NCBI GenBank assembly: GCA_041671365.1
Contig: JBAZBP010000001.1
Coordinates: forward strand, 30,081-94,080
Direction of reading: 5' to 3'
DNA length: 64,000 nt
Source of the DNA: Patescibacteria group bacterium
GTDB lineage: Bacteria; Patescibacteriota; Patescibacteriia; Patescibacteriales; UBA12465
Part shown: positions 6,697-28,169 of the stretch, one piece after another
Layout of the letters: each line of letters begins with the position of its first letter
How positions within the stretch are numbered: the first letter of the stretch is position 1
Notes under the pieces: generated by a model
The model's database searches: none
What the model was told of the DNA's origin: nothing
Seen by the model: only the letters and a program-made list of their open reading frames with translations
Translations under genes and position numbers: made by a program

Positions 6697-7266
6697 ATGA
6701 TAGTTTCTTTGAGTGGAGCCCTGGGTTCCGGAAAAAGTACAATTGCTCAAATGTTGGCCGATAAATTAGGGTGGCCGCGATATTATATGGGTGGTTTAAG
6801 GCGGGCGGCAGCCGAAAAAAAAGGAATGACTTTAGCGGAATATAATAAATTAGGAGAGACTGATATCTATACTGATCAAGAAGTTGACGAATATCAAAAA
6901 AAATTGGGCCAAACACAGGATAATTTTATTATTGAGGGTCGAACTTCTTGGTATTTTATTCCTAATTCATTAAAAATTTATCTGGATGTTGATTCGGAAG
7001 AAGGGGCAAAAAGAATTTTTAGTAGTTTACAAAAGAAAAATAATCGTAATGAGGATCGAGGACTTGAGAGCGTAAAAGCAGTGCGAATTAGCGGGGAAAA
7101 TAGATTAGCTAGTGATCGCTTAAGATATCAAAAATATTATAATATAGATGTTAATGATAAAAATCATTACGATTTTTATCTCGATACTACGAATTTAAGT
7201 CCGGAGCAGGTTTTTACGACTGTTTATGATCAAATAAAGACCAGGCTTGACAATAAGAAATATTAA
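6697..7266 (+). CDS. Cytidylate kinase-like (NMP kinase family) protein
   Basis: 189-aa ORF with P-loop GALGSGKST at the N-terminus. Size and pattern fit short CMP-kinase-family proteins. Confidence 0.6.
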   Translation: MIVSLSGALGSGKSTIAQMLADKLGWPRYYMGGLRRAAAEKKGMTLAEYNKLGETDIYTDQEVDEYQKKLGQTQDNFIIEGRTSWYFIPNSLKIYLDVDSEEGAKRIFSSLQKKNNRNEDRGLESVKAVRISGENRLASDRLRYQKYYNIDVNDKNHYDFYLDTTNLSPEQVFTTVYDQIKTRLDNKKY

Positions 7267-9863: not shown

Positions 9864-9937
9864 GGAGTGGTAGCTCAGTTGGTTAGAGCGCCTGCCTGTC
9901 ACGCAGGAGGTCGCGGGTTCGACCCCCGTCCATTCCG
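9864..9937 (+). tRNA. tRNA-Asp (anticodon GTC), no encoded CCA
   Basis: Acceptor ggagtgg/ccattcc, anticodon stem cctgc/gcagg with loop ctGTCac, T-arm gcggg-ttcgacc-cccgt. Confidence 0.9.
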
Positions 9938-9981
9938 CTAATAAAAATATCCTAACTTTGTTAGGATATTTTTATTATTGT
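9922..9981 (+). repeat. Direct repeat copy 1 (60 bp): tRNA-Asp from mid T-loop to its 3' end, plus the terminator
   Basis: Identical base for base to 10134-10193 by direct comparison of the two strings. Confidence 0.95.
9943..9978. terminator. Bidirectional hairpin terminator (copy 1)
   Basis: 13-bp perfect stem aaaaatatcctaa / ttaggatattttt with loop ctttg. A-run on one side and T-run on the other. Confidence 0.75.
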
Positions 9982-10133
9982 ACGAGTTAGGGGGTCGAAC
10001 AGGTCAGAAGCGAGACACGAGACGAGGCGGAAGCCGAGGCGAGTAGACGAGCGATCGCAAAGTATCCGGGGGATACTTTGCGCTGACCCCGGACAAGTGA
10101 GCTCGCCGCAAAATGGCGGCGAGCGAGCGCGAA
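9982..10133 (-). repeat. GC-rich tRNA-trailer module, copy A (tRNA-Asp associated)
   Basis: 152-nt GC-rich island in AT-rich DNA. It starts with gggggtcgaac (9990-10000), the reverse complement of the tRNA-Asp T-loop/T-stem gttcgaccccc. Perfect hairpins at 10057-10081 and 10102-10123. Shares blocks (gaacaggtcagaagcgag, cgagcg repeats) with copies B-E. Strand is given as the one on which the GTTCGA motif reads forward; this choice is arbitrary. Confidence 0.8.
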
Positions 10134-10193
10134 ACCCCCGTCCATTCCGCTAATAAAAATATCCTAACTTTGTTAGGATATTTTTATTATTGT
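10134..10193 (+). repeat. Direct repeat copy 2 (60 bp): partial tRNA-Asp 3' end plus terminator
   Basis: Identical to 9922-9981. It ends exactly at the base opposite the discriminator of the convergent tRNA-Arg. Confidence 0.95.
10155..10190. terminator. Bidirectional hairpin terminator (copy 2), shared with tRNA-Arg
   Basis: Same 13-bp stem hairpin as 9943-9978. It abuts the 3' end of tRNA-Arg on the minus strand. Confidence 0.75.
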
Positions 10194-10264
10194 GCCTCCA
10201 GGGGGAATCGAACCCTCATCTTGAGTTCCGGAAACTCACGTTCTATCCATTGAACTATGGAGAC
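10193..10264 (-). tRNA. tRNA-Arg (anticodon CCG), no encoded CCA
   Basis: Minus-strand cloverleaf: acceptor gtctcca/tggaggc, anticodon stem tgagt/actca with loop ttCCGga, T-arm gaggg-ttcgatt-ccccc. Confidence 0.85.
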
Positions 10265-14652: not shown

Positions 14653-15321
14653 TTATTTTGACGCTTTAAGCTCAGTCCAAAGCATTACCCTGTTTAAAAT
14701 TTTAGAATCAATGATTTTCAACCCAGATTCATAGGCCAATCTTTCCACGTCTTCAGAACTATATGCCTTTGATTTCAATCCGCTCTGAGAATAAAATATC
14801 TCATTTTTCTCGTCAATATGACGAATTTTTATGTCGACAGCCTTATACCAATTTTTTCTATTCTCCAACGTTCCTTTAAGATAGGTTGTAATAACTATGC
14901 TCTTTTCAGTCACCTTATTAAGTTCTTTTAAAACCATAACTTCATCTTCAACATTTCCTAATGTATTCCAGACACAGAGACTAAAATCAAAATATTTTTT
15001 TGAAAAAAATTTATTTAAATTTTTTAGGTCAACATTTTCTATTTTTACATTAGAAAAATTATCTGCAATCTTTATAGATTCTTCTAGCATGAGTCTGGCG
15101 GTATCAACTCCCATAAACTCAGAAACTAACGGAGCTATTTCTGGAATAAGTCGGCCAATACCGACACCGGCCTCTAAAACTCTCTTGGCGCTACGAACCT
15201 TTTCTTTTAATAATTTAGTTTCTTGACGAATATATTCTTGATATTCTAGCGGGTAATACTCCGGGATTAGAGCTTTAAAAGGAAAATTTTTAAAATCTTC
15301 TCCCTCAAAAAAATTGGACAT
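14653..15321 (-). CDS. Class I SAM-dependent methyltransferase
   Basis: Motif I VLEAGVGIGRL. About 222 aa from MSNFFEG (ATG 15321). 19-nt gap to the radical SAM gene. Confidence 0.75.
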   Translation of the reverse strand: MSNFFEGEDFKNFPFKALIPEYYPLEYQEYIRQETKLLKEKVRSAKRVLEAGVGIGRLIPEIAPLVSEFMGVDTARLMLEESIKIADNFSNVKIENVDLKNLNKFFSKKYFDFSLCVWNTLGNVEDEVMVLKELNKVTEKSIVITTYLKGTLENRKNWYKAVDIKIRHIDEKNEIFYSQSGLKSKAYSSEDVERLAYESGLKIIDSKILNRVMLWTELKASK

Positions 15322-15370
15322 ATGATAATTATTATCTATATAATTATACCACAAAAAATCATAAACTAAC

Positions 15371-15555
15371 CGCTAGTTCGCTGTCTCACTTATCCTCTGG
15401 CAAGTGGGTCTTCAGAATTTACTAAAAATCCTTGTATTTACGGGGTTCATGGGTTTATCCGATGCTAAATTGTCTTGGCGTGGAGGGGGGGGCTGCCTGC
15501 CGGCAGGCAAGGATTTCTCGCGCTCGCTCCCGACCTGTTCGAACCCCTTTTCGAT
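15371..15555 (+). repeat. GC-rich tRNA-trailer module, copy C (diverged, no intact tRNA neighbour)
   Basis: Ends ctcgcgctcgctcccgacctgttcgaacccc (GTTCGAACCCC at 15537-15547), like the other copies. Hairpin tgcctg-ccgg-caggca at 15494-15509. Upstream block ctcacttatcc resembles ctcacttgtcc in copy A. The 5' boundary is uncertain. Confidence 0.6.
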
Positions 15556-15559
15556 ATGC

Positions 15560-15593
15560 AAAATTAAAATACCCAATGGGTGTTTTAATTTTC
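15560..15593. terminator. Bidirectional hairpin terminator next to module C
   Basis: Stem aaattaaaataccc / gggtgttttaattt (with G-U pairs), loop aat, flanked by A and T runs. Confidence 0.6.
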
Positions 15594-15677
15594 TACGCGG
15601 AGTGTTATAGATGTTATCAGAACTGAGATGTTTAAAAACATCAGCAAACATTAAAATTTTTCGCTCGCCCGATATAA

Positions 15678-16334
15678 TTAATTTAATTCTAAAAATTGAC
15701 CCTCACTAATAATTTTCACATCACCGTTGTCAACCTTCACCGCTGACATATCATCCAGAACATAAATTTTCTTTTTAATATCCTTGGTTGCGCTTAAAAC
15801 ACCTTCTTTGTTTCTTAGATAAAAATGAGGACTATTATAATGAGGAAGCGCATAAAAATCAACAAAATTAAGCCCAGATAAATTTTCTGTTTTTTCTAAA
15901 TCTTCTTCATATAATTTCTGCAAAATATTTAATATTAAATCCGGACTAACAATCATACTCCCGGCACTAATACCGACATAAACTTTTGTTTTTAAAAATT
16001 CCGGCAACAAAGCAGCCAAACCGGATTTGCTCACCCATTCCATAAGATGAAAAGTGTTTCCACCCTCAAAAAATAAAATATCTGCCTTTTGCAATTGAGG
16101 CTCCCAAATATTTCTATCGACGGCGGAAATATCAACTATGCTTATAGACTGTAAATTTAATTCTTTGAGAGTTAAAAGATCTTTAATCACCCATCGTTTA
16201 TCTCCCTTTTCCACATTGGAAGCGGTGGGAATAAAAGCTAGAGATGTTTCCCTCGGCCTTTTACTGACTAAATCAAAAAGGGCTTTTTTAATAGAATCAT
16301 TGGAAATGCCGGCTGATGTTAATAATAATTTCAT
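15678..16334 (-). CDS. Peptidase E-like / S51 family (type-1 glutamine-amidotransferase-like fold)
   Basis: 218-aa ORF. MKLLLTSAGI start, FFEGGNTFHL and GISAGSMI (nucleophile Ser) motifs typical of dipeptidase E relatives. Confidence 0.7.
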   Translation of the reverse strand: MKLLLTSAGISNDSIKKALFDLVSKRPRETSLAFIPTASNVEKGDKRWVIKDLLTLKELNLQSISIVDISAVDRNIWEPQLQKADILFFEGGNTFHLMEWVSKSGLAALLPEFLKTKVYVGISAGSMIVSPDLILNILQKLYEEDLEKTENLSGLNFVDFYALPHYNSPHFYLRNKEGVLSATKDIKKKIYVLDDMSAVKVDNGDVKIISEGQFLELN

Positions 16335-16423
16335 ACAAAATTAATAAATATTGAATAATATAATTATAGCTAAAATTATCGAAAAAATCAATTTAATCTT
16401 AAATTAGGACCATAATATTTTAC

Positions 16424-16564
16424 CTACGCTCGCCGTCGCTCGCTCATTCGTTGTCCAGAACTTGCGTCCGACCTGCCCCCGGCAGGTCGTCAGACGCTCG
16501 CTGCAATATTCGCCTGCTGGCGAATATTTAGCTCGCTTCAAGTTTGTTCGAATCCCGTCGACGA
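16424..16564 (+). repeat. GC-rich tRNA-trailer module, copy D
   Basis: 109/113 identity between 16444-16556 and copy E 26090-26202 (counted by hand). Perfect hairpins at 16469-16489 and 16505-16528. GTTCGAATCCC at 16546-16556 differs at 1 of 11 positions from the tRNA-Ser T-loop/T-stem gttcaaatccc. Confidence 0.8.
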
Positions 16565-16566
16565 AT

Positions 16567-16601
16567 AAAAAAACAGCAGCATAAAATGCTGCTATTTTTT
16601 T
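16567..16601. terminator. Bidirectional hairpin terminator between module D and motif F2
   Basis: A7 run, stem agcagc / gctgct with loop ataaaat, then a T7 run. Confidence 0.65.
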
Positions 16602-16640
16602 ATGCGGAGAGGGTGGGACGCACTTGGAAAGGTTATCAAG
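16602..16640 (-). repeat. tRNA-Ser-3'-end-like motif, copy F2 (candidate att remnant)
   Basis: Plus-strand tgcggagagggtggga (16603-16619) matches the 3' end of the tRNA-Ser gene (18470-18486) at 16 of 17 positions, in the same orientation. The rest aligns with F1. Confidence 0.55.
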
Positions 16641-16645
16641 TAATC

Positions 16646-17527
16646 CTATTTTGAAAATTTGAATGTTGCCAGTATTCCATTACCAATTGCAATGGGATCA
16701 AAATTCTGGTCCTTGTTGGCTGGGCGCTCCATTATTTGTAACCAGGAAGCATCAAAAAATACTGCGATAATCTGGCCAGCACTATCGCCCTCAAAACCGC
16801 CAATATCAGTTCCCTTGATAGCAAGGAATGATGAACCATCAACAACGATTTGTGATTCCTGCCAATTCTTTAACGATTTTTTATATGAAGCTATTATACT
16901 TTCACGAGTATTACGTTCGTCGTATCTATTTAGATAAAAAAATGAGTTATCACCTCCAATATCTGTCGTATAATATGGAGATTTTGCTATAAGAATATGA
17001 TTTTGAGCCTCCTTCACTTCAAACCCGGAAGGAACTTTAAACGACAGAGTAAAATAAGATGATTTAAATGGGAGCCAATCCGTAGAGAGTTGAGAAACTA
17101 ATATCATTTCTAGATTTTTATTGGTAATTCCTAGCCCTAGATTTCTCATAATATTAAAAGCGTCAGTAGGATTACCTAAAAAATACATCTTTAAATTAAC
17201 CGGATTAACATAATAGGCTTTTCCGCTATCTTCAACTTTTAATAGGATCTTACCTGATAATCTACTAGGGGCTAGTTCATTAAATAAATTAAAATCTTTA
17301 TTGGAAATACCCAGTCCCAATTCACGCATAACTTGAAAAGCATCGGCTGGTCTTCCTAAAAAATATCTCTGAGAATTATTAGGATTAACATACCAAGCTT
17401 CACCACGAGATTCTACTTGCAAGAGAATCCGTCCTTTTAATCGGCTAGATGTATCGCCGGCAAAACTATTATTAAAAGGGAAAAATAATAAGATAGCGGT
17501 TAGGACAAGGAAAATAATTTTTTTCAT
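16646..17527 (-). CDS. Secreted protein with two tandem ~55-aa repeats, unknown function
   Basis: Start at MKKIIFLVLTAILLFFPFNNSFAG (signal peptide, ATG 17527). The repeat SRLKGRILLQVESRGEAWYVNP...GLGISNKDF is followed by SRLSGKILLKVEDSGKAYYVNP...GLGITNKNL. Confidence 0.65.
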   Translation of the reverse strand: MKKIIFLVLTAILLFFPFNNSFAGDTSSRLKGRILLQVESRGEAWYVNPNNSQRYFLGRPADAFQVMRELGLGISNKDFNLFNELAPSRLSGKILLKVEDSGKAYYVNPVNLKMYFLGNPTDAFNIMRNLGLGITNKNLEMILVSQLSTDWLPFKSSYFTLSFKVPSGFEVKEAQNHILIAKSPYYTTDIGGDNSFFYLNRYDERNTRESIIASYKKSLKNWQESQIVVDGSSFLAIKGTDIGGFEGDSAGQIIAVFFDASWLQIMERPANKDQNFDPIAIGNGILATFKFSK

Positions 17528-17558
17528 AATGTTTATGGTATGATATTCTGATTTTGAA

Positions 17559-18242
17559 TTACCTAAATCGAAAACTCTTATAAAATTCTTCAAAATTATT
17601 AGATTTAACGGCCCCATTAGATAACACATAAGTTATCTGATTCCTTTCCACCACCACAATATTAAATTCCCACGTCGGAATATTTTTCTCTAGTTCACTA
17701 TTAGTTATAACTAATAATGTTCCAGCCAAACCATTAATTACCACTGGTAATTTCTTGATTATAGAATGCCCGGCACGATCTTTCTCCGTCAATTCTTGAT
17801 CAGAAATTACCCGCGCCGCAGATCTATTGGTATCAATGTTAATAAATAATTCCCCATCATTATTTGGGTCTTGATTATTTTTTCCAAAAGCTACTCCAGT
17901 CGATGTTGAGGAACCAAATATTTTCCAATCCGCTGGATATTTTACTTCATAACCGTATTTTTCGTTATGATAGGTTTGCCAATCCGTATTAGTTTGATTG
18001 GGAATAATTGAACTATTACTATTTTGATTAGCTGAGTTTGTTTTTATCGCCTCATTTTCTTTTAAAAGCTCACCATTCTGCTTTTTCAAATCTTGAACCT
18101 GGGCATTTAAGTTATTGGCCTGCTCTTGTGATAAAGAAACAGGTTGATTCGACGCCGAATTATCAACCACCGGCTTTTGCGTCAATGAACAGCCTGCTAT
18201 TAGCAGAGCCAAAATTGGAAACAAAATTAAAATCTTTTTCAT
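17559..18242 (-). CDS. Lipoprotein, unknown function
   Basis: Signal plus lipobox MKKILILFPILALLIAGC, a low-complexity Q/N-rich linker, then a globular C-terminal part. Confidence 0.65.
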   Translation of the reverse strand: MKKILILFPILALLIAGCSLTQKPVVDNSASNQPVSLSQEQANNLNAQVQDLKKQNGELLKENEAIKTNSANQNSNSSIIPNQTNTDWQTYHNEKYGYEVKYPADWKIFGSSTSTGVAFGKNNQDPNNDGELFINIDTNRSAARVISDQELTEKDRAGHSIIKKLPVVINGLAGTLLVITNSELEKNIPTWEFNIVVVERNQITYVLSNGAVKSNNFEEFYKSFRFR

Positions 18243-18436
18243 AAAATTACATCAAAATGATTAATCTAATTTAAAATTACCACAAAACCCTCAAAAAATC
18301 AATTTTAGTAAAGGTAAAAAAATATTAGACTAATGACTTTGGAACGCTAATTTTTTCTTAAACATTAAAAAAATACACTAATTTACTCCAGATTATTCGT
18401 AACTCCCTGCAACGCTTTGGAACTATATGGATATCA

Positions 18437-18462
18437 AAAAATAAGGCGTTAACCTTATTTTT
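18437..18462 (-). terminator. Rho-independent terminator of tRNA-Ser
   Basis: 10-bp stem aaaaataagg / ccttattttt with a 6-nt loop, 10 nt past the tRNA 3' end. Confidence 0.65.
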
Positions 18463-18471
18463 GACAATCTG

Positions 18472-18558
18472 CGGAGAGGGAGGGATTTGAACCCTCGATG
18501 CCCTTTCAGGCATACCGGTTTTCGAGACCAGCGCACTAAACCACTATGCGACCTCTCC
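18472..18558 (-). tRNA. tRNA-Ser (anticodon CGA), no encoded CCA
   Basis: Minus-strand cloverleaf: acceptor ggagagg/cctctcc, anticodon stem ctggt/accgg with loop ctCGAaa, long variable arm atgcctgaaagggcat, T-arm gaggg-ttcaaat-ccctc. Confidence 0.9.
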
Positions 18559-24452: not shown

Positions 24453-25517
24453 TTATTTATTAATTAAAAAATTAGCAACATCGCCGTCTTGAAAAGTATA
24501 GTCTTTCCCTTCGGTACGGATCAGGCCAAGCTCTTTAGCTTTAGTTTCGCTGCCGCACTCGACAAATTTTTGCCAATTTATTACTTCTGCTCGCACAAAA
24601 CCTTTAATAAAATCCGTATGAATCTCCCCGGCTGCTTGCGGCGCCTTTGTTCCAGTTTTAATAGTCCAGGCACGAGTTTCGTCGGCTCCAGTAGTAAAGA
24701 ATGTTTCTAGTCCTAAAATTTTATAAGCACTTTGGATTAATCTATCTAAACCGCTTTGTTCTAAGCCTAACTCTTTAATGTATTCAGCTTGTTCGTTTTC
24801 TGGTAAATTAGCGATCTCTTCTTCTAATTTTACGTTAATTTTAATAATTAGATCTTTTGTTCCTGGCAGAGCATCGCCTGTGTGTTTTTCGTCGATATTT
24901 AGTAAATAAATAATCGGTTTAACTGTTAATAAATTTAAAGTTTTTACAAATAGCGTTTCCTCTTCGTTAAAACTAAGATCACGAACGGCTTGGCCGCCCG
25001 CTAAATGTTTGTATATTTTCTCTAATATTACATTATTATAGATTATTTCCTTGTTTCCACTTTTCGCTTCTCGGCGAGACTTATCTAACCTTTTTTCGAT
25101 AGTTTCCAAATCGGCAAAAATAAGCTCCATATTAATAGTTTCTTTGTCGCTAGCTGGGTCAATTTTACCTTCGACATGAATAACGTTAATATCTTTAAAA
25201 TCCCTAATTACTTCACATATAGCGTTACACTCTCTAATATTAGCTAGAAATTTATTGCCCAGACCTTCTCCCTGGTGAGCCCCAGCAACTAATCCGGCAA
25301 TATCGACAAATTCAACGGTTGTAGGAATAATTTTAGCGGGTTTGGAGACGGCAGCTAATTGATCCAAACGAAAATCAGGAACTTTAACGATACCGACATT
25401 AGGATCGATAGTGCAGAAAGGATAATTGGCCGCTTCTACCCCTTTTTTGGTTAGAATATTGAATAATGTTGATTTACCGACATTTGGCAAGCCAACAATT
25501 CCTATAGATAAAGACAT
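24453..25517 (-). CDS. ychF: Ribosome-binding ATPase YchF
   Basis: From MSLSIGIVGLPNVGKSTLFN (ATG 25517). G-domain motifs and a C-terminal TGS-like domain. Confidence 0.9.
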   Translation of the reverse strand: MSLSIGIVGLPNVGKSTLFNILTKKGVEAANYPFCTIDPNVGIVKVPDFRLDQLAAVSKPAKIIPTTVEFVDIAGLVAGAHQGEGLGNKFLANIRECNAICEVIRDFKDINVIHVEGKIDPASDKETINMELIFADLETIEKRLDKSRREAKSGNKEIIYNNVILEKIYKHLAGGQAVRDLSFNEEETLFVKTLNLLTVKPIIYLLNIDEKHTGDALPGTKDLIIKINVKLEEEIANLPENEQAEYIKELGLEQSGLDRLIQSAYKILGLETFFTTGADETRAWTIKTGTKAPQAAGEIHTDFIKGFVRAEVINWQKFVECGSETKAKELGLIRTEGKDYTFQDGDVANFLINK

Positions 25518-26047
25518 ATATTTGTGTGTGTTTTCGAGTATAACGGAGAATTTAGTTTTTGCCAAATTACAAAGTTAAATTTAGAAACAAAAAAGAGGCT
25601 CATAAAAGTCTTTTGTTATTATTTATAGACTGTTTTGAGCCTCCATTCCTGAATTTATCAGGATTAATTAAAGGGCATTTGCTAACTTAAATGCGTCGTT
25701 CTTACCAACTTTTAGCAAATTTATTTTATATTTTTTACTAATTTTAGATGAAATCTAGTAAAAGTTTCTTTTTGATTTTTATCAGATTTAATCTTAATTG
25801 ATTAGTTGTGTAATTTGCTCGGTTTAATTTCTTATTAAAATTCTTTGTCACGTTAGCATTGACAATGTTTTTATAAAAGTTAGTTAAAGAACTTATAATT
25901 ATTATAGCATCTAAAATAAATAAGGTCAAATATTGTAGACTTAAATAGATAATATTAAATTATTTATTTAATATTAGTAAAATTATTGAATTTTATATGA
26001 ATGTATTAGTATTTAAGTCCACGCCATTTTAGACTTAAAATTAATAT

Positions 26048-26056
26048 TTATACACA
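26048..26056 (+). promoter_or_regulatory. DnaA-box consensus match (TTATACACA)
   Basis: Fits TTATNCACA exactly. Confidence 0.35.
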
Positions 26057-26067
26057 AAAAACACAGG

Positions 26068-26076
26068 TTATCCACA
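26068..26076 (+). promoter_or_regulatory. DnaA-box perfect consensus (TTATCCACA)
   Basis: Exact match to the canonical 9-mer. Same orientation as the box at 26048 and 20 bp from it. Confidence 0.35.
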
Positions 26077-26085
26077 GATTTTAGT

Positions 26086-26210
26086 ACGGTCATTCGTTGT
26101 TCAGAACTTGCGTCCGACCTGCCCCCGGCAGGTCGTCAGACGCTCGCTGCAATATTCGCCTGCTGGCGAATATCTGGCTCGCTTCAAGTTTGTTCGACTC
26201 CCATTACAAT
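26086..26210 (+). repeat. GC-rich tRNA-trailer module, copy E (tRNA-Cys associated)
   Basis: Near-identical to copy D. Contains gttcgactccca (26192-26203), which is the T-loop/T-stem of the convergent tRNA-Cys in inverted orientation (12/12). Hairpin at 26115-26135. Confidence 0.8.
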
Positions 26211-26216
26211 AAATTT

Positions 26217-26254
26217 CAAACATAAAAGACAGCCGATGCTGTCTTTTATGTTTG
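26217..26254. terminator. Bidirectional hairpin terminator shared by tRNA-Cys and module E
   Basis: caaacataaaagacag-ccgatg-ctgtcttttatgtttg: a long perfect stem that directly abuts the tRNA-Cys 3' end. Confidence 0.7.
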
Positions 26255-26328
26255 AGGCTTGAGTGGGAGTCGAACCCACGAATGGCAGTTTTGCAAACTG
26301 CAGCGTTAGACCACTTCGCCATCAAGCC
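26255..26328 (-). tRNA. tRNA-Cys (anticodon GCA), no encoded CCA
   Basis: Minus-strand cloverleaf: acceptor ggcttga/tcaagcc, anticodon stem gcagt/actgc with loop ttGCAaa, T-arm gtggg-ttcgact-cccac. Only 26 nt downstream of the tsaD stop. Confidence 0.9.
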
Positions 26329-27569: not shown

Positions 27570-27641
27570 GGTCCCTTCGTCTAGTGGTTAGGACGTCAGG
27601 TTTTCATCCTGTTAACAGGGGTTCGATTCCCCTAGGGACTA
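27570..27641 (+). tRNA. tRNA-Glu (anticodon TTC), no encoded CCA
   Basis: Acceptor ggtccct/agggact (G1-U72), anticodon loop ttTTCat, T-arm agggg-ttcgatt-cccct. Closely parallels the E. coli tRNA-Glu layout. Confidence 0.9.
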
Positions 27642-27647
27642 CTAACT

Positions 27648-27690: not shown

Positions 27691-27834
27691 AAGGTGGGGA
27701 ATCGAACAGGTCAGAAGCGAGCTTAACCGAAGGCCAGTAGGCCGAGGTGTAGCGAGCGTCGGACGAAGCTCCGGGGGAGCTTCGGACGCTGACCGCGACA
27801 ACGAACGAGCGGACTGGTCCGCGAGTGAGGCGAA
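27691..27834 (-). repeat. GC-rich tRNA-trailer module, copy B (tRNA-Glu associated)
   Basis: Starts with ggggaatcgaac (27696-27707), the reverse complement of the tRNA-Glu gttcgattcccc (12/12), then gaacaggtcagaagcgag as in copy A. Hairpins at 27764-27784 and 27809-27822. Ends ggcgaaa just before the repeated tRNA 3' end. Confidence 0.8.
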
Positions 27835-27851: not shown

Positions 27852-27899
27852 GGATAAAAAATAGTTTTTATTAAAAATAAAAACCACTAATCAAAAAAA

Positions 27900-28169
27900 T
27901 TAGTGGTTCCGAAACTTTATTAGAAAATACAAATTATAGAGGGCGCCACCGTTTACCACAATTGCTCCAAATATTAAAGACCAGTCAATATAATACATGC
28001 CTTTAATAAATAGAATGCTTTGTGCGAAAATAACGGCTAACGGCAGATAAATTGAAACGTTTTTAGTGCTCCCATTTTTTCTAATTTTTTTTCCTTGAGC
28101 ATATTGCCCATATGCAACGACTATCCAACAAATAGCCAACGCGCAACTCCAAATCAATTGTTCTGTCAT
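27900..28169 (-). CDS. Three-helix membrane protein, SemiSWEET/PQ-loop-like
   Basis: 89 aa with three hydrophobic helices. YAQGKKIRKNGSTKNVS resembles the PQ-loop motif. A hairpin terminator overlaps its stop codon. Confidence 0.5.
   Translation of the reverse strand: MTEQLIWSCALAICWIVVAYGQYAQGKKIRKNGSTKNVSIYLPLAVIFAQSILFIKGMYYIDWSLIFGAIVVNGGALYNLYFLIKFRNH

Follow-up and report, generated by a model that had tools for sequence, protein, structure and literature searches.

How does nearly the same non-coding sequence come to stand behind two different tRNAs of one bacterium? The question is raised by a 64,000-nt stretch of a Patescibacteria group bacterium (contig JBAZBP010000001.1, positions 30,081 to 94,080; hereafter the window), in which a segment behind tRNA-Cys, here called module E, closely repeats another, module D, that lies behind the decayed 3´ end of a tRNA-Ser. 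D and E are 3´-truncated relics of one sub-family of a structured repeat, placed behind two different tRNA types, and not a distinct design. The pair and its immediate surroundings are as follows, R1 being the covariance model that defines the family as described below.

26254-26328, minus strand: tRNA-Cys(GCA), found by ARAGORN and Rfam, with T-loop GTTCGACTCCCA, the sequence that E mirrors in its first 11-12 nt
26203-26253, minus strand: terminator hairpin (about 26216-26255) and 14-nt spacer leading from tRNA-Cys to E
26087-26202, minus strand: module E, nt 1-116 of the D-type module (R1 90 bits, E=2.6e-17)
16603-16629, minus strand: decayed tRNA-Ser 3´ end (ttccaagtgcgTCCCACCCTCTCCGCA), without the tRNA body
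16557-16602, minus strand: spacer (tcgtcgac) and terminator hairpin upstream of D
16427-16556, minus strand: module D, with left end GGGATTCGAAC and helices P1-P4 (R1 106 bits, E=1.1e-20)

An ungapped alignment of 16444-16556 with 26090-26202 gives 109 identities in 113 positions, and extension to 16441-16556 and 26087-26202 gives 111 in 116. The four mismatches (D/E) are C/T at 16455/26101, T/C at 16528/26174, A/G at 16530/26176 and A/C at 16552/26198. Homology begins precisely at the left boundary that is common to the whole family, and the 60-nt flanks of the two modules are identical at 15/60 and 20/60 positions, which is the random level, so that the pair does not belong to a larger segmental duplication. 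The identity and the unrelated flanks bear out a preliminary description of this DNA, which had itself named a larger duplication as evidence that would speak against its reading. The A/C mismatch falls in gttcgaAtccc (D) versus gttcgaCtccc (E) and keeps each copy complementary to the T-loop of its own tRNA, as had been proposed. On the plus strand, the terminus of E reads gttcgaCtccca, an inverted match to the tRNA-Cys T-loop GTTCGACTCCCA over 11-12 nt.

Both modules are incomplete at the other end. E comprises the left end GGGAGTCGAAC, the 5´ arm of P1, P2, P3 with a CCGGGGG loop, the 3´ arm of P1, and ACAACGAATGA, inside which it breaks off before P4; the right end and the distal tRNA copy found in most relatives are gone, and a search for a distal tRNA-Cys copy downstream of E, allowing 5 mismatches, found none. 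D is cut off just past the 3´ arm of P4 and lacks the right end GAGGCGGAA and the distal tRNA copy, while its counterpart in another genome (locus L007) runs on past P4 as AATGAGGCGGAAATCCCACCCTCTCCGC. The earlier observation that neither copy has a distal tRNA 3´-end repeat thus stands. The accompanying claim that both lack a hairpin block holds for E, where P4 is absent, and fails for D, where P4 is kept down to about 16427, beyond the interval compared at first; hairpins P2 and P3 are retained in both.

D and E belong to a family of about 60 copies across 45 Patescibacteria and metagenome loci (designated by L numbers). The loci were collected by a pattern search for shared motifs, 13 in species-representative genomes and 32 in metagenomes, and an nhmmer profile gives 64 matches in the window plus these 45. 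The 13 are mostly metagenome-assembled genomes (MAGs) of Patescibacteria or Falkowbacteria, with two labelled Gammaproteobacteria. These two, L004 and L010 (CAYYDR010000001.1 and CAYPAS010000007.1, ‘uncultured Gammaproteobacteria’), carry typical modules, including a triple array behind tRNA-Glu; all other named sources being Patescibacteria, this suggests mis-binning or mislabelling. Viral contigs, searched with three patterns, held no module copy. Scans against Rfam 15, by gathering score and by E-value, passed the tRNAs alone and nothing credible over the modules, and the literature searched describes no tRNA-linked repeat of this kind in Patescibacteria or the Candidate Phyla Radiation (CPR). 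The family is apparently undescribed.

Aligned on the strand of the neighbouring tRNA, the units share one order. Behind the tRNA and its terminator hairpin come 8-19 nt of purine-rich spacer and then the GC-rich module itself, about 140-150 nt long; most units then repeat, in direct orientation, the tRNA sequence from A58 to the 3´ end, usually followed by a second terminator unrelated to the first. The module has a GC content of about 50-63% against a background of about 30-35%. Direct tRNA repeats from A58 flank the unit in modules A and B of the window and at most loci, not in D and E, and the tail is reduced to 7-10 nt in L026, L030, L036 and L043. Most of the 64 matches follow a tRNA of the same strand at a distance of 45-56 nt, and others form tandem arrays of two or three modules (L004, L010, L020, L025). 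E, at 50 nt from tRNA-Cys, and D keep the family position, which is 45-56 nt behind a same-strand tRNA or 3´-end remnant and past its terminator. The hosts are of six types: Gly-GCC/TCC, Gln-CTG/TTG, Glu-CTC/TTC, Ser-GCT/GGA, Cys and Asp. No protein recurs beside the copies, the neighbours being ftsE/X, tig, smpB, lysS and tsaD. In model R1 the 5´ part consists of the left end GGGNNTCGAAC, P1, GAAGCGAG, P2, GCGAGCG and P3 with its CCGGGGG loop, and the 3´ part of P4, the right end GAGGCGGAA or GCGCGATAA, and the distal tRNA copy from A58. D and E have everything from the left end to P3 and do not carry the complete 3´ part from P4 through the distal copy, which makes them truncated members. 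Five family copies, A to E, lie in the window, and the exact motif TCGAACANNNNNGAAGCGAG is found in A, B, D and E.

That the terminus of a module matches the local tRNA is a rule of the whole family. Of 25 distinct modules that follow an intact tRNA directly, 23 begin with the 11-nt reverse complement of positions 53-63 of that tRNA, and the remaining two match it at 10 of 11 positions; with tRNA and module partners shuffled in 2000 trials, the mean run was 7.7 and the maximum 9.2. The resulting stem, P0, is Watson-Crick at 176 of 180 positions and exists in six versions that track the tRNA: GGGAAT/ATTCCC, GGGATT/AATCCC, TGGATT/AATCCA, AGGATT/AATCCT, GGGAGT/ACTCCC and GGGGGT/ACCCCC. A constant TTCGA lies just before the junction, 5´ of the matched tail. 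Among D-type copies, GGGAGT occurs only in E, and all others, which stand behind Ser-type ends, have GGGATT.

The module also has a conserved fold. RNAalifold, run on 18 distinct type-II copies, predicts a stem P1 around hairpins P2 and P3, another hairpin, P4, and a stem P0 that closes the whole by pairing the 6-8 nt at the left end with the right end plus the beginning of the distal tRNA copy. The fold has 43 pairs, with 95.5% of cells paired and two-sided changes at 24 pairs; these values were attained by none of 500 column shuffles, and sliding the partner column by 1-3 positions as a control gave a pairing of 31-41%. The recurring GCGAGC boxes pair mutually via tandem G.A mismatches, the P3 loop C-C-GGG-G-G is invariant, and GNRA-type GGAA loops accompany the tandem G.A motifs. 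Mismatches in P2 and P3 are strongly asymmetric (G.A/A.G 46 vs T.C/C.T 2), and one P2 pair runs through the series A-T (D, L021), G-T (E, L007) and G-C (L037). Because of this asymmetry and of the path taken by the P2 pair, the tRNA-sense strand is the one that folds, as RNA or as single-stranded DNA. Two other tests of the strand say little: the counts of G-U versus A-C are weak (13 vs 7, beside about 500 Watson-Crick pairs in P2 and P3), and a comparison of whole-module minimum free energies is ambiguous.

Is E old at its position, or was it gained there? Relatives located through TsaD homologues keep the tsaD-tRNA-Cys-ychF neighbourhood with TsaD 72-75% identical (L046-L052), and at four such loci no module is present and R1 finds nothing. 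There, tRNA-Cys is followed by a short terminator or none and then by a conserved block starting aaaatCTGTGGATAAC. The window carries about 170 extra nt (26084-26253, terminator, spacer and E), and E directly abuts the conserved block. Modules of another sub-type than E stand behind tRNA-Cys in L028 (TsaD 72%) and L034 (69%), and the second copy in L034 ends after 25 nt, adjoining the same block. Because related tRNA-Cys loci at a similar tsaD distance (69-75%) lack the module, E is a lineage-specific gain at a locus where presence is patchy. The comparison of orthologous tRNA-Cys loci that the preliminary description had called for thus yields a presence/absence polymorphism at an orthologous tRNA, as is characteristic of tRNA-associated genomic islands and of cis-mobilizable elements (CIMEs). 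Two further loci show an order of events: in L020 a new unit with its own terminator lies between the tRNA and terminators that are also present in L006, and in the L010 array the copy most distant from the tRNA is the most decayed.

The identity of D and E had been taken to indicate recent copying or gene conversion between trailers of different tRNAs. Copying between such trailers is supported by the sequences; recency is not. In three further genomes or metagenomes, the D-type copies agree with D and E at 105-113 of 116 positions (91-97%), and D is nearer to L007 (113/116) than to E (111/116). An identity of 96% is therefore normal for the sub-family, and the D/E pair does not demonstrate that copying was recent. 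The remnant-terminator-spacer-module unit of D is 85-88% identical over 205-217 nt in L007, L021 and L037, and a PsbP-like gene common to these genomes has a DNA identity of 72.7%; the D-type sub-family either evolves very slowly or moves between genomes. Exchange of patches is visible elsewhere. Between L009 and L031 the flanks agree to 98-100% (to 100% in the tRNA and the first terminator), yet there is a wholly different spacer, a P2 exchanged for a variant common elsewhere and a compensatory change of G-C to A-T in P4. In one genome, L008 and L011, behind tRNA-Glu-CTC and tRNA-Glu-TTC, have modules identical at 139 of 140 positions and unrelated terminators and spacers. Across the copies, variants of P1, P2, P3 and the tail combine in many ways.

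D differs from E in lying behind a remnant, and two further features are needed to place it.

18471-18558, minus strand: tRNA-Ser(CGA), head of the array
16646-18242, minus strand: cargo between tRNA-Ser(CGA) and the displaced trailer, a 327-aa open reading frame (ORF) without Pfam match and a PsbP-like ORF

On the minus strand, tRNA-Ser(CGA) is followed by a terminator, the PsbP-like and 327-aa ORFs, the Ser remnant, a terminator, D and a peptidase S51 gene, and then by a CTCCGCG remnant, a terminator, module C, and methyltransferase and radical-SAM genes. The array as a whole (14653-18558, minus strand) thus consists of accessory genes separated by decayed tRNA-Ser 3´ ends, each with a terminator and a module (D, C). 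Its genes are PsbP-like, the 327-aa ORF, peptidase S51, methyltransferase and radical SAM/SPASM, and no recombinase lies within it. We read 16603-16629 as a former tRNA-Ser 3´ end, displaced by a 1.85-kb insertion, and from its gene order the array looks like the product of stepwise integration of small gene cassettes at the tRNA T-loop.

Displacement of this kind is seen at other loci. Remnant-plus-module units lie behind inserted DNA in L023, an island, and in L003, a restriction-modification island of which L035 is the same locus without the island. In L023 (1288-2802) a 504-aa large serine recombinase (Resolvase, Recombinase, Zn_ribbon_recom) has its 3´ end overlapping tRNA-Ser(GGA), and the displaced Ser 3´ end, terminator and module follow 2.6 kb downstream; this is a bona fide island at the same T-loop site. 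Since remnant-plus-module units sit behind inserted islands, copies that lack a tRNA are best understood as old trailers shifted by later integrations at the T-loop. Remnants upstream of modules (L005, L007, L013, L021, L022, L032, L037, L044 and window 16603-16629) read GTTC(C/G)AA, 4-5 extra nt and TCCC, which makes them T-loop-like half-sites carrying a small insertion when compared with a genuine T-arm, and AT-rich non-tRNA DNA precedes them; they are probably hybrid attachment sites from island integration. The cargo varies. Behind tRNA-Gly, ORFs of 135 aa (HNH-endonuclease-like) and 104 aa lie between two terminator-spacer-module-distal-repeat copies in L019 (9323-10057) and L017 (9016-9750), and the same tRNA-Gly locus is without the HNH cassette in L018 and L035. 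In L037 (2167-3391), four-helix-bundle (Avd-like) and reverse-transcriptase-like ORFs stand just upstream of a displaced D-type module and, judged by eye, are possibly a diversity-generating retroelement carried as cargo. We considered such genes (HNH in L017/L019, NYN, PMT_2, PsbP-like, peptidase S51, methyltransferase) as the machinery of the modules and set them aside as varied cargo.

One possibility that would unite these features is that the modules are non-autonomous elements which home to tRNA 3´ ends and which gene conversion reshuffles. We adopt it tentatively, at slightly less than an even chance. The unit would enter a tRNA gene at the T-loop, at about G57|A58, by site-specific recombination with an enzyme encoded elsewhere. 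It would supply a replacement 3´ end and a terminator, leaving the tRNA intact, and the original 3´ end would stay behind the module as the distal repeat; repeated entries would give tandem arrays. A folded single strand would display the T-arm-like duplex P0, and the target would be read by base pairing, from which it would follow that the left end always matches the neighbouring tRNA. Resident copies would swap patches by ectopic gene conversion, producing mosaic modules and near-identical modules behind different tRNAs. In the case of E, a D-type sequence would have been placed behind tRNA-Cys in the lineage of the window, its first nucleotides staying or becoming Cys-specific, and its 3´ third would have been lost later. 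With the same reserve, as part of this account, D and E would be dead copies of a protein-less, structure-dependent repeat element residing in tRNA-gene trailers of a Patescibacteria clade.

The insertion step fits the new unit in L020, the distal decay in L010 and the recombinase islands at the same site. The one-strand fold, the T-arm-like stem with its mismatched centre and the constant TTCGA point to a folded strand that mimics and reads its target, and since the module has no gene and no constant neighbour, any enzyme would act in trans. The sequences show directly the anatomy of the unit, its fold and strand asymmetry, the tailored ends, the differences in presence between loci, the arrays and the mosaic copies; the chemistry of integration, its single-stranded intermediate and the enzyme are what we infer. 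In a bolder version, which we consider unlikely, the element would be a gene-free mobile nucleic acid whose folded sense strand (RNA or single-stranded DNA) reads the T-loop with an 11-nt guide, splints its own 3´ end to A58 and directs a host or trans-acting enzyme; changes of a few guide bases would then retarget it, as between D (Ser) and E (Cys).

Several observations weigh against homing. No recombinase or transposase is linked to the modules, and no circular junction or freshly emptied site was seen among them. Between genomes in which a shared protein gene has a DNA identity of about 73%, D-type modules keep 91-97%, and in L022 and L044 the distal tRNA copy is better preserved than the younger displaced 3´ end; either finding is explained at least as well by purifying selection for a host function as by selfish spread. 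At orthologous ftsX-tRNA-Gln(TTG) loci the modules persist with compensatory changes, and the left end of E remains Cys-specific though it has no distal copy to pair with. If the whole unit moves, the near-identical modules with unrelated terminators in D/E and L008/L011 require a second process, gene conversion, and simple integration does not predict the perfect 60-nt repeat, terminator included, that flanks module A (described below).

Much of this would be explained if the module were a functional structured RNA, made by read-through of the tRNA terminator or by processing of a long tRNA transcript and inherited mostly vertically in tRNA trailers. Its 5´ end would pair either with the precursor tRNA, at the T-loop, or with the tRNA-like tail at the 3´ end of the module itself, copies behind different tRNAs would stem from duplication and be kept alike by concerted evolution, and D and E would have decayed after losing their transcription context or function. 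Strong covariation with invariant unpaired nucleotides, GNRA-type GGAA loops and tandem G.A motifs are as expected of an RNA, and so is the fact that it is the transcribed sense strand which folds; the module always keeps the same place and direction with respect to the tRNA, with a terminator directly following the distal copy. The module is better conserved than a neighbouring gene, it is retained at the orthologous tRNA-Gln loci, and in L022 and L044 its distal copy has decayed less than the younger displaced 3´ end. Within the window, modules A and B, which are intact, stand directly behind live tRNAs and have the distal copy, and the displaced C and D are decayed. There is also a precedent in the Escherichia coli tyrV trailer, whose 178-bp repeats each hold about 19 nt of tRNA 3´ end and where the small RNA RttR is annotated. 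Yet a promoter scan near E and B placed no site that could drive the module, with nothing promoter-like between terminator and module, and strong two-way terminators box it in. G-U pairs are rare in P2 and P3 (13 against about 500 Watson-Crick), and presence at the orthologous locus is patchy. Tandem arrays and truncated copies occur, one of the latter (E) directly behind a live tRNA, and numerous intact copies are a long way from the nearest tRNA, with inserted cargo in front of them. We see an RNA function as the main rival of homing and still as a rather unlikely explanation.

Alternatively, some nuclease or recombinase encoded at another locus might use the module as its guide RNA or guide strand, much as TnpB uses omega-RNA and IS110 its bridge RNA, or as in TIGR systems. 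A scaffold of about 150 nt would carry a 17-19-nt guide identical to the tRNA from A58 and a second segment complementary to the opposite strand, for homing to the T-loop or for its protection. Size and the arrangement of scaffold and 3´ tail fit, one segment is complementary and one identical to the tRNA-sense strand, and the constant TTCGA just in front of the matched tail might play the part of an adjacent motif; a dual-strand guide logic is documented for TIGR and IS110 (PMC12045711), a comparison that is conceptual. The two supposed guides, however, overlap and pair in P0, unlike those of bridge or TIGR RNAs, and the tail is more simply a displaced tRNA 3´ end, only 7-10 nt long at four loci. 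With no effector gene beside any of the roughly 60 copies and no Rfam family match, we hold a guide function to be very unlikely. Plain local duplication is more improbable still. Unequal crossing-over between a tRNA 3´ end and its downstream copy, as in the 178-bp repeats of E. coli tyrT/tyrV, could yield the tandem arrays and the perfect 60-nt repeat of A, which resemble products of unequal exchange, and the analogue in E. coli is confirmed; in that case the likeness of D and E would come from a segmental duplication or from chance. The identity of D and E, however, stops sharply at the module edges between random flanks, a single module family stands behind six tRNA types with ends tailored to each, and E is an insertion relative to related genomes, by which plain duplication is largely refuted for the pair.

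Among known systems, the unit is closest in layout to islands and CIMEs in tRNA 3´ parts, which likewise insert at the T-loop, supply a replacement tRNA 3´ end, keep the original 3´ end as a direct repeat of about 17-19 nt and form arrays by repeated integration; real islands of this kind occur at module sites (the large serine recombinase in L023; L003 vs L035). The unit differs in being only about 200 nt long and gene-less, in having a conserved four-helix body instead of arm sites, in its high conservation across genomes and in bearing an inverted T-loop copy that pairs with the repeat. Such elements further depend on an integrase, their own or one acting in trans; the unit here contains no gene, and the modules have no recurring protein neighbour. 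IS200/IS605 elements and their gene-less derivatives (PATEs, REP/BIME) resemble the modules in using hairpins of a single active strand, in lacking classical inverted ends, in their abundant non-autonomous copies, and in inserting beside a fixed short sequence that is read through base pairing by a retargetable element-internal guide. In the module, however, the guide-like match is 11 nt and not 4-5 nt, and a tRNA 3´-end repeat is present, where IS200/IS605 insertion leaves no duplication at all; no Y1 transposase was identified in the 64 kb of the window, the extent of the search.

Integron attC sites and the CTX-phage attP(+) share with the module a structure conserved over sequence, strand asymmetry, and a stem that mimics a double-stranded target with a mismatched centre (in the module GGGATTCG against CGGAAATCCC, compared with the tRNA T-arm). 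Like attC, the module separates accessory genes in arrays (the tRNA-Ser array at 14.6-18.6 kb, L014, L019). Unlike attC, it has no R´/R´´ boxes and no nearby integron integrase, its target is a tRNA gene and much of its sequence is invariant. The trailer repeats of E. coli tyrT/tyrV (rtT/RttR, tpr) are tRNA-trailer units with about 19 nt of tRNA 3´ end each, a spacing of 178 bp and an annotated small RNA, but they are confined to a single locus and tRNA, have no inverted T-loop segment, show no sign of spread to other tRNAs and are unrelated in sequence. Yeast mitochondrial GC clusters and Rickettsia palindromic elements are, like the modules, short GC-rich hairpin-forming repeats scattered in AT-rich genomes. 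The modules differ from these in standing strictly at tRNA trailers, in one orientation, with a defined multi-helix fold and tRNA-matched ends.

Other classes were considered and rejected. In a miniature inverted-repeat transposable element (MITE) the ends would be inverted repeats, each directly adjoined by a short target-site duplication; the only inverted relation here is that of the left end to the distal tRNA copy (6-8 nt), and terminator and spacer separate the direct repeat from the left end. As an integron attC site the module fails by its ends, TTCGAAC and GGCGGAA-ATCC against RYYYAAC/GTTRRRY boxes, and by the lack of an adjacent integrase. The differences between D and E (C/T, T/C, A/G, A/C) are not confined to adenines as in a diversity-generating retroelement, and no reverse transcriptase lies near either. 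The module is too small to be a group I or group II intron and has no Rfam match, and a retroelement with a tRNA primer-binding site does not fit a distal copy that follows the gene sequence past position 73, not an added CCA. An origin of replication was rejected as well, with one perfect DnaA box at 26068-26076 and no enrichment.

If homing by base pairing is what the modules do, bacteria with tiny genomes would host a family of highly structured, gene-less elements which use it to recognise tRNA genes, repair the interruptions they cause and recombine among themselves, a compact natural case of programmable, structure-guided targeting. The elements mark tRNA trailers of Patescibacteria as hot spots for small accessory-gene cassettes. 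Mobile element or new trailer RNA alike, they form a conserved non-coding family missing from Rfam and not found in the literature searched, and model R1 is ready for annotating such genomes.

The remaining copies in the window illustrate an intact and a collapsed state of the module.

9990-10133, plus strand: module A, intact, type-I tail, behind tRNA-Asp (9864-9938); R1 65 bits
10134-10193, plus strand: distal copy of the tRNA-Asp A58-3´ end with the whole terminator, 60/60 identical to 9922-9981
27697-27834, plus strand: module B, intact, type-II tail, behind tRNA-Glu (27570-27642) and its terminator; R1 162 bits
27835-27851, plus strand: distal copy of the tRNA-Glu A58-3´ end (ATTCCCCTAGGGACTAC), then a second, unrelated terminator (27880-27910)
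about 15477-15547, minus strand: module C, with an internal deletion fusing left end GGGGTTCGAACAGGTCGGGAGCGAG to right end CGCGAGAA; R1 16 bits, E=0.1

Module A is bracketed by the perfect 60-nt direct repeat 9922-9981 / 10134-10193, which comprises tRNA-Asp from A58 and a two-way terminator, and the second repeat copy abuts and serves the convergent tRNA-Arg(CCG) (10192-10264, minus strand). Other loci have unrelated terminator pairs, and the repeat reflects either a very recent insertion or a terminator transferred via gene conversion. Module C is preceded by its terminator and the CTCCGCG remnant and followed by a tRNA-like distal copy, which is split by the palindrome GCCTGCCGGCAGGC. This small palindrome recurs in the window at 15493-15510 and in L005 (937-950), L015 (4144-4157), L020 (566-579) and L028 (about 7215-7245). 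Its position varies, lying within the distal tRNA copy in C and L005 and within P4 of the tRNA-Cys module in L028, and it may be a second, tinier insertion element.

Between E and ychF (24453-25565) lies an AT-rich non-coding block of about 480 nt (25600-26083, minus strand) that is conserved in at least five related genomes. Within it, a TTGACC-17-TATAAT promoter stands at 25929-25901, a terminator lies close to 25600, and the perfect DnaA-box-like TTATCCACA occupies 26068-26076. No Rfam match was found for the block. RNAalifold on five sequences predicts 71 pairs, 32 of which have more than one pair type, and the block may be an unknown small RNA or a ychF leader.

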